Positions 58,238 through 61,740 of a stretch of DNA of 64,000 bases are shown here, piece by piece. Under the pieces are notes generated by a model. It ran no database searches. It was not told the origin of the DNA and saw only the letters and a list, made by a program, of their open reading frames with translations. This stretch comes from Escherichia coli (GTDB lineage Bacteria; Pseudomonadota; Gammaproteobacteria; Enterobacterales; Enterobacteriaceae), in NCBI RefSeq assembly GCF_001677475.2, contig NZ_CP015229.1; one strand, written 5' to 3'. Position numbers and translations under genes: made by a program. How positions within the stretch are numbered: position 1 is the first letter of the stretch; each line of letters begins with the position of its first letter.

Positions 58238-58636
58238 GTGGATTTCCTCAAAAGTCAGCAGGGCAAAAGCGCCAAAAAACGGCAGATTGCCGAAAAAGGC
58301 CGCAATTATACACAAAATCCCTGAGTTTGTCGGGGGTACTGCTGATTTTAGACGACGATCGTTTTCATTTGAAAGGAAACGCAAAAAGAAAATAATCTTT
58401 TTGCCTCCATTTATTATTTAAGATAAGGTTAATGCTCTACTTGTTCTTTTTTTAATTCAAATGATATTTTTATCTTTCTGACGTTTTAAACGTATCGGAA
58501 GATGTTATTTATTTTAATAAAAAAACACTCTAAATATAAAATTATTTCTTGCAGTAATTATAAAAGCCGAAAACAGAACTCAAAAACAATCTGGCTAAAT
58601 AAAAGTAACAAAATTTGCTTTAAGGAAGAATTTTCT

Positions 58637-60865
58637 ATGTACACACAGACCCTGTATGAGTTAAGTCAGGAGGCTGAACGGCTGTTACAGCTTTCTCGCC
58701 AACAGTTGCAGTTACTGGAAAAAATGCCTCTCTCTGTACCCGGAGACGATGCGCCACAACTGGCTTTACCCTGGAGTCAGCCTAATATCGCCGAACGTCA
58801 CGCGATGCTGAATAATGAGTTGCGTAAAATTTCCCGACTGGAAATGGTGCTGGCGATTGTCGGTACCATGAAAGCAGGGAAATCAACCACCATTAATGCC
58901 ATTGTTGGTACGGAGGTTCTGCCTAATCGTAATCGCCCAATGACTGCGCTGCCGACGCTTATTCGCCATACGCCCGGGCAAAAGGAACCGGTACTGCATT
59001 TTTCACATGTCGCGCCAATCGATTGTTTAATTCAAAAATTACAACAGCGCCTGCGTGATTGCGATATTAAGCATCTGACCGATGTGCTGGAAATAGATAA
59101 AGATATGCGTGCGCTTATGCAGCGGATCGAAAATGGCGTCGCTTTCGAAAAATATTATCTGGGTGCCCAGCCTATTTTTCATTGTCTGAAAAGTTTGAAT
59201 GATTTGGTGCGACTGGCGAAGGCGCTGGACGTCGATTTTCCTTTTTCTGCTTACGCCGCCATTGAGCATATTCCCGTGATTGAAGTGGAGTTTGTCCATC
59301 TGGCGGGGCTGGAGAGTTATCCCGGTCAGTTGACGTTACTGGATACCCCCGGGCCAAATGAAGCCGGGCAACCGCATCTGCAAAAAATGCTTAACCAGCA
59401 GCTGGCTCGCGCCTCGGCGGTATTGGCGGTGCTGGATTATACGCAACTGAAATCGATCTCCGATGAAGAGGTCCGTGAGGCGATTTTGGCGGTGGGGCAA
59501 TCGGTGCCGCTGTATGTGCTGGTCAATAAGTTCGATCAACAGGATCGTAACAGTGACGACGCCGACCAGGTGCGGGCACTGATTTCCGGGACGCTGATGA
59601 AAGGCTGTATTACGCCACAGCAGATATTTCCGGTGTCGTCGATGTGGGGCTACCTGGCGAATCGGGCGCGCCATGAGTTAGCCAACAACGGTAAGTTACC
59701 ACCGCCAGAGCAACAACGCTGGGTGGAAGATTTTGCCCATGCCGCGCTCGGCAGGCGCTGGCGTCATGCCGATCTGGCTGACCTCGAACATATTCGTCAT
59801 GCTGCCGATCAGTTGTGGGAAGATTCGCTGTTCGCCCAGCCAATTCAGGCGTTGCTTCATGCCGCTTACGCTAACGCCTCGTTGTATGCTCTGCGATCTG
59901 CCGCGCATAAACTGTTGAATTACGCGCAGCAGGCGCGGGAATACCTGGATTTCCGTGCGCACGGGTTAAACGTCGCTTGTGAACAATTGCGGCAAAATAT
60001 TCATCAGATCGAAGAAAGTTTGCAGCTATTGCAACTCAATCAGGCGCAGGTGAGCGGCGAGATTAAACATGAAATCGAGCTGGCCCTGACCTCCGCCAAC
60101 CACTTTCTGCGTCAACAGCAAGATGCGCTGAATGCGCAGTTTGCCGCCTTGTTTCAGGATGATTCGGAGCCGTTAAGCGAGATTCGTACCCGCTGTGAGA
60201 CACTGTTACAGACGGCGCAGAACACCATTAGTCGCGACTTTACGCTGCGTTTTGCCGAGCTGGAATCCACCCTTTGCCGGGTGTTAACCGATGTTATTCG
60301 CCCCATTGAGCAACAAATCAAAATGGAATTGAGCGAGTCAGGGTTTCGTCCTGGGTTTCATTTTCCTGTTTTTCACGGCGCAGTTCCCCACTTCAACACT
60401 CGCCAGCTGTTCAGTGAAGTCATTTCGCGCCAGGAAGCAACGGACGAGCAGAGCACGCGTTTAGGCGTTGTGCGTGAGACTTTTTCGCGCTGGTTGAATC
60501 AGCCCGACTGGGGACGGGGAAATGAGAAATCCCCGACAGAGACGGTTGATTACAGTGTGTTGCAACGAGCATTAAGCGCAGAAGTCGATCTTTATTGCCA
60601 ACAAATGGCTAAAGTTCTGGCAGAGCAGGTCGATGAATCTGTTACGGCAGGCATGAATACTTTTTTCGCTGAGTTCGCTTCATGTTTGACGGAATTACAG
60701 ACGCGTTTACGCGAAAGTCTGGCTCTGCGTGAACAAAATGAATCGGTGGTCAGGCTGATGCAGCAGCAATTGCAGCAGACTGTGATGACTCACGGCTGGA
60801 TTTACACCGACGCCCAGCTGTTACGCGATGATATTCAAACACTTTTCACGGCAGAACGATATTGA
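58637..60865 (+). CDS. crfC: dynamin-like GTPase (clamp-binding sister replication fork colocalisation protein)
   Basis: 742 aa from MYTQTLYELSQ; P-loop GTMKAGKSTT; long coiled-coil C-terminus; AT-rich leader. Confidence 0.9.
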   Translation: MYTQTLYELSQEAERLLQLSRQQLQLLEKMPLSVPGDDAPQLALPWSQPNIAERHAMLNNELRKISRLEMVLAIVGTMKAGKSTTINAIVGTEVLPNRNRPMTALPTLIRHTPGQKEPVLHFSHVAPIDCLIQKLQQRLRDCDIKHLTDVLEIDKDMRALMQRIENGVAFEKYYLGAQPIFHCLKSLNDLVRLAKALDVDFPFSAYAAIEHIPVIEVEFVHLAGLESYPGQLTLLDTPGPNEAGQPHLQKMLNQQLARASAVLAVLDYTQLKSISDEEVREAILAVGQSVPLYVLVNKFDQQDRNSDDADQVRALISGTLMKGCITPQQIFPVSSMWGYLANRARHELANNGKLPPPEQQRWVEDFAHAALGRRWRHADLADLEHIRHAADQLWEDSLFAQPIQALLHAAYANASLYALRSAAHKLLNYAQQAREYLDFRAHGLNVACEQLRQNIHQIEESLQLLQLNQAQVSGEIKHEIELALTSANHFLRQQQDALNAQFAALFQDDSEPLSEIRTRCETLLQTAQNTISRDFTLRFAELESTLCRVLTDVIRPIEQQIKMELSESGFRPGFHFPVFHGAVPHFNTRQLFSEVISRQEATDEQSTRLGVVRETFSRWLNQPDWGRGNEKSPTETVDYSVLQRALSAEVDLYCQQMAKVLAEQVDESVTAGMNTFFAEFASCLTELQTRLRESLALREQNESVVRLMQQQLQQTVMTHGWIYTDAQLLRDDIQTLFTAERY

Positions 60866-61740
60866 CCAAGACGTTACTTGACGGCCCCGGTCGCGTGCTG
60901 GAGTCGGTTTATCCCCGCTTTTTAGTGGATCTGGCGCAGGGCGATGATGCCCGCCTTCCACAAGCCCATCAGCAGCAGTTTCGTGAACGACTGATGCAGG
61001 AACTTCTTGCGCGCGTGCAGCTTCAGACATGGACGAACGGCGGCATGTTAAATGCGCCGCTTAGCCTGCGTCTGACATTGGTGGAAAAACTGGCGTCGAT
61101 GCTGGATCCCGGTCATCTGGCGCTGACGCAGATCGCGCAGCATCTGGCGCTGCTGCAAAAAATGGATCACCGCCAGCACTCTGCTTTCCCAGAGCTCCCC
61201 CAGCAAATTGCCGCCTTGTATGAGTGGTTTTCAGCCCGTTGTCGCTGGAAGGAAAAGGCGTTAACGCAACGAGGCCTCCTGGTGCAGGCAGGTGATCAGA
61301 GCGAGCAAATTTTTACCCGCTGGCGTGCTGGGGCGTATAACGCCTGGTCGTTGCCTGGGCGCTGTTTTATCGTTCTGGAGGAGTTGCGCTGGGGGGCATT
61401 TGGCGATGCCTGCCGTCTGGGAAGCCCGCAAGCGGTGGCGTTGTTGCTGGGTGATTTGCGCGAGAAAGCGACACAACATCTGGCAGAGAGTATCAATGCG
61501 GCACCGACCACGCGTCACTATTACCATCAGTGGTTTGCCTCTTCGACCGTTCCGACGGGAGGGGATCATGCTGATTTTTTAAGTTGGCTGGGAAAGTGGA
61601 CCACGGCAGATAAACAGCCCGTTTGCTGGTCAGTGACCCAACGCTGGCAAACAGTCGCGCTGGGGATGCCACGACTCTGTTCAGCGCAGCGTTTGGTGGG
61701 GGCAATGGTCGAGGAAATCTTCTCTGTAAATTTGGTGTAA
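60862..61740 (+). CDS. yjcZ: uncharacterised protein translationally coupled to crfC
   Basis: 292 aa; start ATGA overlaps crfC stop. Confidence 0.85.
   Translation: MTKTLLDGPGRVLESVYPRFLVDLAQGDDARLPQAHQQQFRERLMQELLARVQLQTWTNGGMLNAPLSLRLTLVEKLASMLDPGHLALTQIAQHLALLQKMDHRQHSAFPELPQQIAALYEWFSARCRWKEKALTQRGLLVQAGDQSEQIFTRWRAGAYNAWSLPGRCFIVLEELRWGAFGDACRLGSPQAVALLLGDLREKATQHLAESINAAPTTRHYYHQWFASSTVPTGGDHADFLSWLGKWTTADKQPVCWSVTQRWQTVALGMPRLCSAQRLVGAMVEEIFSVNLV

Follow-up and report, generated by a model that had tools for sequence, protein, structure and literature searches.

The crfC–yjcZ locus of Escherichia coli as the probable core rdcA–rdcB operon, and its sister clade of dynamin–YjcZ–patatin cassettes

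The closest described counterpart of the locus studied here is the rdcA–rdcB pair of Escherichia coli K-12, where crfC is annotated as rdcA (b4109) and yjcZ as rdcB (b4110). Bacterial two-hybrid data showed that RdcA binds both RdcB and the MASE1 domain of DgcE, a diguanylate cyclase; RdcA and RdcB were both required for the activation of DgcE by RdcA via MASE1 (Pfiffer et al., 2019; PMC6510439). Single and double deletions of rdcA and rdcB phenocopied each other as well as a dgcE deletion, and the effects were non-additive (PMC6510439). A genome-wide transposon screen published in 2026 independently recovered rdcA, rdcB and dgcE (PMC13031359). In the mechanism shown in the literature, RdcA is a soluble, oligomerising dynamin-like GTPase that binds RdcB, and nucleotide-free RdcA docks on the MASE1 domain of DgcE and thereby activates it. 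GTP is inhibitory; therefore, when its level drops as cells enter stationary phase, c-di-GMP, CsgD and the biofilm matrix are turned on and a brake is put on motility. RdcB is an obligatory co-factor, proposed to serve as a GAP or as a nucleotide-release factor.

The stretch of E. coli DNA analysed here (64 kb, hereafter the window) contains the same locus in the same synteny as K-12, with yjdM divergent from crfC–yjcZ and proP downstream (Table 1). At the protein level CrfC and YjcZ of the window are 99% and 98% identical to K-12 RdcA and RdcB, respectively; the TTGA junction, the internal FliA promoter and the leader are likewise the same, and no difference of substance from the published locus (PMC6510439) was found. 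The DNA of the window showed 98.5% identity to K-12-like strains (best match 99.0%), indicating a somewhat divergent E. coli lineage. CrfC matched the NCBIfam CrfC equivalog NF007368 over residues 1–742 of 742 (1594 bits, cutoff 1146) and Pfam Dynamin_N (E 2.7e-18, 67 bits, cutoff 27), and YjcZ matched Pfam YjcZ (PF13990; E 1e-144, 481 bits, cutoff 27) over profile positions 1–272 of 272 and carries the family signature LEELRWGAFGD. The original prediction, which had placed a P-loop dynamin-like GTPase gene and a gene for a 292-aa second protein at these positions, was correct in all of these respects. The locus was found in 5419 of 5426 complete E. coli genomes and hence belongs to the E. coli core. 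Very probably it represents the core enterobacterial rdcA–rdcB operon, with RdcA–RdcB–DgcE function, an H-NS-bound leader, presumptive translational coupling and an internal FliA promoter. The longest ORF, starting at 58502, was rejected as crfC, as it includes an in-frame AT-rich extension; the real ATG start lies at 58637, preceded by AAGGAAG, and the gene ends with a TGA at 60863..60865. An Rfam scan of 57.5–62.5 kb gave no match in the leader or the genes and one REP/naRNA4 element outside crfC–yjcZ. A phage-borne origin was also discarded, with a single match among 2.9 million IMG/VR contigs.

Table 1. Features of the crfC–yjcZ region, numbered from the first nucleotide of the window
Feature	Position	Strand	Basis
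Divergent yjdM/crfC intergenic region; right-hand 257 bp is the crfC leader/promoter region	58238..58636	.	GC
Conserved leader block GTAATTATAAAAGCCGAAAA containing the FliA -10-like GCCGAAAA, no matching -35	58554..58573	+	Alignment A6
Near-invariant 5'-UTR block GGCTAAATAAAAGTAA..AAAATTTGC.TTAAGGAAG, up to the crfC ATG	58593..58636	+	Alignment columns
crfC/rdcA/yjdA CDS, dynamin-like GTPase, 742 aa	58637..60865	+	ORF, Pfam, NCBIfam, structure model
Beta-clamp-binding motif codons, 41-QLALP	58757..58771	+	Motif per PMC6374313
P-loop codons GTMKAGKST, residues 76-84, with the Walker A lysine K82	58862..58888	+	Sequence
Putative intragenic FliA (sigma-28) promoter TAAAGTTC-N11-GTCGATGA	60610..60637	+	Exact match to K-12 site
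TTGA junction, yjcZ TTG start overlapping the crfC TGA stop	60862..60865	+	Sequence
yjcZ/rdcB CDS, 292 aa, all-alpha, signature RCF..LEELRWGAFGD	60862..61740	+	ORF, Pfam

Among 25 homologues of CrfC, the G1 (G76..T84, GxxxxGKS/T), G2 (T103), G3 (DTPG, 236–239) and G4 (NKFD, 297–300) motifs were invariant or near-invariant, and Lys298 of G4 (N297-K-x-D300) was kept in 90% or more. K82 and T103 are the residues altered in the K82A/T103D genetics of Pfiffer et al. (PMC6510439). An AlphaFold (AF2) model of CrfC (pLDDT 77) placed helices at residues 400–505, 513–561 and 639–741, the first and last of them about 100 residues long, in keeping with the long coiled coil noted in the original prediction; a helical stalk or bundle following the GTPase domain is thus predicted by the model. 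Its best Foldseek matches were SynDLP (8e-13) and BDLP (2e-12), and IniA, DLP1/2 and mitofusins were also matched. A GTPase domain with a long helical stalk is common to CrfC and the bacterial dynamin-like proteins (Nostoc BDLP, SynDLP, Campylobacter DLP1/2, LeoA/B/C of the ETEC Eleos system and B. subtilis DynA), with Foldseek E-values of 1e-12 to 1e-8, whereas sequence similarity is confined to the P-loop region (BDLP, 1.8e-6). Unlike the paired bacterial dynamins, CrfC has as its partner a non-GTPase, all-alpha protein and no second dynamin. The Eleos system (LeoA + LeoBC) was not recovered at this locus: PADLOC gave partial matches of 24.0 bits to LeoBC and 23.9 bits to LeoA, and the second gene, which encodes no GTPase, gave no match. 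The earlier idea of a dynamin pair engaged in membrane remodelling or phage response does not suit this pair, since YjcZ is no dynamin, RdcA is reported as soluble and as lacking a typical membrane-binding motif, and the known output is c-di-GMP signalling.

YjcZ had also been put forward as a functional partner of CrfC encoded in the same operon, and here the proposal agrees with both the published two-hybrid and deletion phenotypes (PMC6510439) and our own survey. A full-length CrfC homologue was present directly before YjcZ in 80 of 80 species loci, a strict phylogenetic co-distribution that is new here. Among the metagenome loci, which came from a scan with a narrow alignment, YjcZ directly followed a CrfC-type dynamin wherever there was enough flank, the exception being a JukA::YjcZ fusion (L087), and the distance matrices of the dynamin and YjcZ were correlated (r = 0.88). 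By analogy with the 98–99% identical K-12 proteins, the proteins of the window would likewise interact and activate DgcE. The partnership is real but was already known, having been demonstrated in 2019 and confirmed in 2026, and the finding as originally stated therefore matters little.

The AT-rich leader described in the original prediction (about 250 bp at roughly 25% GC) was confirmed: 58380..58636 (257 bp) has 23.7% GC, the lowest of any 257-bp stretch in the window, where just 0.12% of such stretches have a GC content of 26% or less. The entire intergenic region has 31% GC. The crfC promoter region has been reported to be bound and repressed by H-NS and to contain DnaA boxes (PMC6374313), and transcription of crfC in the window would accordingly start from an AT-rich, H-NS-repressed region. 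Two blocks within the leader are conserved. The upstream block, GTAATTATAAAAGCCGAAAA, is kept in Escherichia, Citrobacter, Kosakonia, Enterobacter and Pseudescherichia; the columns of the 5'-UTR block, which includes the crfC Shine-Dalgarno sequence AAGGAAG (58622..58628), are invariant or near-invariant across 11 genera. A FliA promoter in the leader was considered and rejected, as GCCGAAAA lacks a -35 element and the best FliA score was 10/16; Fitzgerald et al. (2014; PMC4183435) likewise stated that the upstream FliA promoter had been incorrectly predicted. Promoter-like matches that a scan of the leader with sigma-70 and terminator consensus sequences produced were set aside as uninformative, because they are expected in DNA of 24% GC.

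A different role for CrfC has been described, in which it acts mainly as a replication-fork and nucleoid-partition factor that binds the beta clamp via 41-QLALP, so that YjcZ would be incidental. In its favor are reports of polar foci, of binding to the clamp and of anucleate cells when crfC is deleted or carries Q41A (PMC6374313; Ozaki 2013 as cited there), and QLALP is present at residues 41–45 of CrfC in the window. The motif, however, belongs to an N-terminal linker that is hypervariable: Escherichia sp. E1V33 has PLTLP instead, and the 23 other homologues aligned, like every other genus in the alignment, lack it. Outside E. coli the motif is not conserved; the GTPase motifs and the pairing with YjcZ, by contrast, are universal. 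Pfiffer et al. also argued that the replication data came from plasmid expression and that the knockout had no growth defect (PMC6510439). We consider it somewhat unlikely that this is the main function of the protein, and the RdcA–RdcB–DgcE reading is retained.

Translational coupling of the two genes was another element of the original prediction. The 4-nt stop/start overlap on which it was founded is genuine, but the tetranucleotide is TTGA and not ATGA, as it is in K-12 and the other Escherichia loci examined, and the start codon of yjcZ is accordingly TTG. Conservation of the YjcZ N-terminus as protein from codon 1 onward supports this start. Of 83 core-clade loci, 75 have an NTGA overlap, which reads ATGA in 69 from other Enterobacteriaceae and TTGA in the six from Escherichia (five fetched loci plus the window); the NTGA overlap also occurs in 62 of 72 distinct patatin-clade loci. 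No Shine-Dalgarno or AGGAGG-like element precedes the yjcZ TTG/ATG, the upstream sequences being …GGCAGAACGATATTG and GGCAGAACGATA. The overlap and the missing Shine-Dalgarno sequence are the marks of a translationally coupled pair, which crfC and yjcZ would appear to be. On the long transcript, yjcZ is most likely translated by termination-reinitiation, given the lack of a recognisable Shine-Dalgarno sequence and the weak TTG overlapping the crfC stop, and this would tie RdcB output to RdcA output.

Coupling is not the sole route of yjcZ expression, since a FliA promoter within crfC drives yjcZ in K-12, as validated by ChIP-seq (PMC4183435) and shown to be FliA-dependent in reporter fusions. 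The corresponding site in the window, which precedes the yjcZ start by 252 nt, is exactly the K-12 ChIP-seq/RNA-seq site "(yjdA)yjcZ" and matches 13 of 16 positions of a TAAAGTTT-N11-GCCGATAA-like FliA motif; by identity to the bound K-12 site, it is a putative FliA promoter in the window strain as well. Its position is kept in most genera, and it ranked first of 141 in synonymous-site conservation, an observation that is new here. Such a promoter would add yjcZ mRNA timed with the flagellar regulon, as shown for K-12. The dependence of crfC itself on FliA is presented differently in the literature, with an internal promoter only according to Fitzgerald et al. (2014) and the operon belonging to the FlhDC/FliA regulon according to Pfiffer et al. 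(2019). The presumed leader of the FliA transcript (60645..60900) gave a folding z-score of +0.42, hence no special structure. The FliA transcript also counts against coupling, as it allows yjcZ to be expressed without translation of full-length crfC.

One form of this objection holds that the overlap is mere compact packing, with YjcZ made from the FliA transcript by independent initiation and no functional coupling. The fall of yjcZ RNA from 52 to 1 in a fliA deletion (PMC4183435) and the synonymous-site conservation of the promoter speak for it. Independent initiation is at odds with the absent Shine-Dalgarno sequence, and packing alone with retention of the overlap in both clades; in addition, the FliA transcript would start some 10 nt before an AUG in the crfC frame (Met673, 60653), from which ribosomes could reach the overlap even on the short mRNA. 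We thus regard packing alone as unlikely and favor coupling on the long transcript, with the FliA promoter as a second source of yjcZ mRNA.

Extending the comparison to the wider YjcZ family revealed a sister clade, new here, whose members are dynamin–YjcZ–patatin cassettes carried by mobile, CP4-44-like islands. These cassettes occur in approximately 45% of complete E. coli genomes, one example being that of Nissle (locus L088, 7361..11714), and the E. coli copy has already been named a putative defence system in a 2026 paper. Their paralogous GTPase is 33% identical to CrfC (alignment A7), or about 46% over the GTPase domain, and their YjcZ-family protein shows about 31% identity; the GTPase motifs, the ELRWGxFGD signature and the 4-nt overlap are common to both. 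In contrast to the pair in the window, which has no effector gene, the cassettes contain a third, tightly coupled gene for a patatin with an intact GxSxG/DG[AG] dyad, and they form a clade separate from the core pair, which falls in a patatin-less clade of the NJ tree. Downstream of yjcZ no patatin gene was found, this position being occupied by the proP leader in Escherichia and by a minus-strand membrane-permease ORF at two non-Escherichia loci. That ORF also explains the additional 1.7 kb that other genera have between yjcZ and proP, which had been considered as a possible hidden patatin. Two hypothetical genes follow the patatin in E. coli islands, but their conservation does not extend to the wider clade and they were rejected as part of the core cassette. 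No PADLOC model exists for any member of the YjcZ family, and the dynamins gave no more than weak LeoBC matches.

It is very improbable that the core pair itself acts in phage defence or membrane stress, with a dynamin-like protein remodelling or sealing membranes. In favor of such a role are the defence-island contexts of the cassettes, which are its closest paralogues, and the rapid divergence of its proteins (between genera, CrfC and YjcZ share about 60% identity, compared with about 93% for their neighbours YjdM and ProP); but the locus is fixed in the chromosome of nearly all E. coli genomes (5419/5426), has no effector attached, lacks a PADLOC YjcZ model and reaches just 24 bits for LeoA/LeoBC in its GTPase, encodes an RdcA described as soluble and without a typical membrane-binding motif (PMC6510439; PMC6374313), and has a specific c-di-GMP phenotype that is already known. 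Any phage-defence flavour would, we infer, be limited to the paralogous cassettes. Likeness to the Juk (JukA/JukB) anti-jumbo-phage system (bioRxiv 10.1101/2022.09.17.508391) arises only through relatives, and the pair in the window has no JukA or JukB inside or adjoining it.

It is this family context that could matter. In the sister clade, YjcZ relatives invariably lie between a dynamin-like GTPase and a patatin that is catalytically intact as judged from its dyad, with overlapping stop and start codons and on mobile islands. Wedged in this manner, and fused once to the phage sensor JukA, the YjcZ domain may be a sensor-to-effector adaptor. More broadly, and only tentatively, the core pair may be the chromosomally fixed, effector-less sister of the widespread mobile module, with YjcZ as a general adaptor linking a nucleotide-sensing GTPase, or JukA, with the enzyme that provides the output (DgcE for the core pair, patatin for the mobile one) and RdcAB as a defence-type sensor turned over to signalling from GTP to c-di-GMP, or the reverse. 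The adaptor idea provides a concrete way to probe the role of RdcB, and also whether the module, present in nearly half of the complete E. coli genomes, acts against phages. In L087 the JukA::YjcZ fusion is followed by a patatin gene, and JukA or JukAB was located directly downstream of dynamin–YjcZ–patatin cassettes at L107, L109, L111, L169-171 and L173.

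The proposal that YjcZ is a functional partner of CrfC was borne out by published binding data and deletion phenotypes (PMC6510439). The two proteins, then YjdA and YjcZ, were renamed RdcA and RdcB by Pfiffer et al. (2019), who reported that deletion of rdcA, rdcB or both reproduced the dgcE deletion phenotype in a non-additive manner, and that the binding partners of RdcA are RdcA itself, RdcB (tightly bound) and the MASE1 domain of the diguanylate cyclase DgcE (PMC6510439). In the same study, the GTPase-dead T103D version of RdcA lost DgcE binding and the GTP-binding-deficient K82A version was active; the authors concluded that RdcA activates in its nucleotide-free form and that GTP inhibits. 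An independent FRET-to-sort transposon screen identified rdcA, rdcB and dgcE mutants as low in c-di-GMP (PMC13031359, 2026). That screen also strongly associated YnjH, a FliA-regulated protein of unassigned function, with the RdcA/RdcB-DgcE system; ynjH lies outside the window. The experiments suggested in the original prediction are essentially those published by Pfiffer et al. (2019), and its interpretation is right in substance but already known, because it describes a characterised system.

The gene order of this segment is phnC–yjdN–yjdM / crfC–yjcZ / proP–basS, and by megablast 5419 of 5426 complete E. coli genomes carry it (95–99% identity); the K-12 record names the pair rdcA (b4109) and rdcB (b4110). 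The extents of both genes are listed in the table, the 292-aa yjcZ being as originally described. An ORF-finder start for crfC at 58502 was rejected as an AT-rich in-frame extension. An naRNA4 (Rfam) REP-type element lies on the minus strand between yjdN and yjdM (57807..57884; 85.5 bits, above gathering).

Features of the crfC–yjcZ locus (window coordinates)
Feature	Coordinates	Strand	Remarks
Conserved leader block GTAATTATAAAAGCCGAAAA	58554..58573		cross-genus alignment
Near-invariant 44-nt block reaching the crfC ATG	58593..58636		11 genera
crfC/rdcA	58637..60865	+	ATG start at 58637, TGA stop ending at 60865; 742 aa
FliA promoter, 28 nt	60610..60637	+	base-for-base match to mapped site; 252 nt upstream of yjcZ start
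yjcZ/rdcB	60862..61740	+	292 aa; Pfam YjcZ 1e-144

CrfC scored 1594 bits against the NCBIfam CrfC equivalog (cutoff 1146) and carries a Pfam Dynamin_N domain (2.7e-18). Its description as a dynamin-like GTPase with a long coiled coil holds, since the AlphaFold model (pLDDT 77) places helices of ~100 residues after the GTPase domain and its top Foldseek matches were SynDLP, BDLP, IniA, DLP1/2 and mitofusins. The P-loop reads G76-TMKAG-K82-S-T84, T103 is also present (K82 and T103 being the residues mutated in PMC6510439), and the GTPase motifs are invariant or nearly so among the aligned homologues. The published beta-clamp-binding motif of CrfC, QLALP, occupies residues 41-45 (58757..58771) within a hypervariable, low-confidence linker (pLDDT <50 at residues 35-43). 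It is restricted to E. coli proper: no other genus or paralogue in the alignment has it, and Escherichia sp. E1V33 carries PLTLP in its place.

A scan in which a single genome represented each species yielded 80 loci, every one from Enterobacteriaceae, including Escherichia, Citrobacter, Enterobacter, Kosakonia, Phytobacter, Lelliottia, Leclercia, Trabulsiella, Yokenella, Pluralibacter, Superficieibacter, Atlantibacter, Franconibacter and Siccibacter. Independent phylogenetic distribution of the two genes is ruled out, because a full-length CrfC homologue lay directly 5' of the YjcZ gene in all 80; as a rule yjdM lay on the upstream side of the pair and proP on the downstream side. Between-genus identity was ~60% (about 53-66%) for CrfC and YjcZ versus ~93% (about 87-96%) for the flanking YjdM and ProP (these loci, L003-L082, against window 57902..63506); for a core locus, the pair changes unusually fast. 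Both non-Escherichia loci inspected contain a minus-strand ORF for a ~335-aa membrane permease between yjcZ and proP (L021, 6935..7933; L007, 6925..7935), and the yjcZ–proP interval is enlarged in the same way in most other non-Escherichia loci. This ORF is missing from Escherichia, so that yjcZ there abuts the proP promoter region.

The original prediction placed an ATGA at 60862..60865, its sole factual error: the junction, identical in K-12 and strain 746, is TTGA, and yjcZ starts with TTG. Across the loci ATGA was found in 69, TAAnnATG in 4 and a few other small variants in the rest, with TTGA confined to Escherichia (five fetched loci and the window); on this distribution, the A-to-T change is a weakening of the yjcZ start codon specific to Escherichia. 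No Shine-Dalgarno sequence precedes the yjcZ start in any genus of the compared loci and the YjcZ N-terminus is conserved from codon 1, a pattern compatible with translation of yjcZ by termination-reinitiation at the crfC stop. The 4-nt overlap claimed for a coupled pair is present, but any coupling would not be the sole route of yjcZ expression, given a FliA promoter inside crfC.

That promoter was mapped within yjdA by Fitzgerald et al. (2014; PMC4183435), who showed that it drives yjcZ and that yjcZ RNA fell from 52 to 1 upon fliA deletion, and who stated that a FliA promoter predicted upstream of yjdA was incorrect. The internal site is FliA-dependent in reporter fusions. The motif position (−252) is kept in most genera, and synonymous third-codon positions within the −35/−10 elements had a mean information content of 1.47 bits. 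Across the final 150 codons of crfC, 141 equivalent windows gave 0.67 ± 0.26, and the promoter ranked first of 141, also with Escherichia excluded; as the loci are phylogenetically related, this ranking is supportive and not a formal test. Transcription should start ~10 nt 5' of an in-frame crfC AUG (Met673, 60653; region 60641..60655). Speculatively, the C-terminal 70 aa of CrfC could be translated from this transcript, with termination at the TTGA passing ribosomes to yjcZ.

The AT-rich leader of about 250 bp was confirmed: at 23.7% GC, 58380..58636 is the lowest-GC 257-bp stretch of the whole 64 kb, and Taniguchi et al. already account for it, reporting the crfC promoter region as bound and repressed by H-NS, with DnaA boxes (PMC6374313). 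Segments at 6860..7735, 13523..13921 and 21910..22507 also reach <=30% GC in 257-bp windows. Two conserved blocks are embedded in this otherwise fast-changing leader, and their alignment suggests a long, regulated crfC 5' UTR; for the second, one may ask whether an sRNA, CsrA or a translational operator is involved.

An exhaustive HMM search with the YjcZ alignment recovered 262 clusters at 50% identity, ~80 of which comprise full-length proteins with no more than 22–35% identity to YjcZ; all full-length relatives share the signature RCY..LEEL[RY]WGxFGD. Their uniform gene order is a dynamin-like GTPase (~800 aa), a YjcZ-type protein (~300 aa) and a patatin-like phospholipase (~350 aa), seen in five of seven single look-ups and in 78 of 80 loci from metagenomes, the other two being contig ends. 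Neighbours in the look-ups included HicAB, Phd/PIN, MNT/HepT, a type I restriction-modification system and a WYL regulator. Four-nucleotide overlaps occur at the dynamin/YjcZ junction in 62 and at the YjcZ/patatin junction in 56 of 72 distinct loci, and the GGGxxG, GxSxG and DG[AG] motifs are retained in 7/7 patatins inspected. JukA, the sensor of the Juk anti-jumbo-phage system, pairs with variable effectors (bioRxiv 10.1101/2022.09.17.508391). It is fused to YjcZ ahead of a patatin in one locus (L087, 6001..8630; PADLOC JukA 8e-74) and lies directly 3' of the patatin in seven, among them L109 (3500..8686). In L170 (3554..9762), with an SNF2 helicase upstream, a complete JukA/JukB pair follows the patatin (7e-61 and 3e-114), a layout shared by tblastn with L169, L171 and L173. 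The cassette was essentially absent from viral contigs (1 match), and the YjcZ component is not covered by any PADLOC v2 model. In a neighbour-joining tree the core enterobacterial pair and L092 form a clade lacking patatin, separate from the patatin-linked clade; the distances for dynamin correlate with those for YjcZ at r = 0.88.

Within E. coli, an operon of dynamin, 'RdcB family' and patatin genes occurs in 2445 of 5426 complete genomes (~45%), including Nissle, ST131 and O157:H7, and is absent from the 64-kb window. In both genomes inspected, Nissle (L088, 7361..11714) and O157:H7 EC10 (L089), it sits in a CP4-44-like island beside antirestriction, YeeS/T and CbeA/CbtA genes. A 2026 transcriptome paper already described this operon, put its identity with core RdcAB at ~30% and classed it as a putative phage-defence system of the dynamin type (PMC12922286); no functional test or family-wide analysis of it was found in the literature searched. 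Solely from genomic association, we tentatively raise the possibility that the YjcZ domain acts as an adaptor linking sensor to effector, and that a mobile dynamin–YjcZ–patatin (± JukA) module, likely serving in phage defence, has core RdcAB as its sister without an effector; the E. coli instance of this module is already anticipated in print (PMC12922286). Some E. coli assemblies also encode 438-442-aa proteins (P0020-P0022) with Dynamin_N and YjcZ Pfam domains together, apparently crfC–yjcZ fusions through internal deletion.
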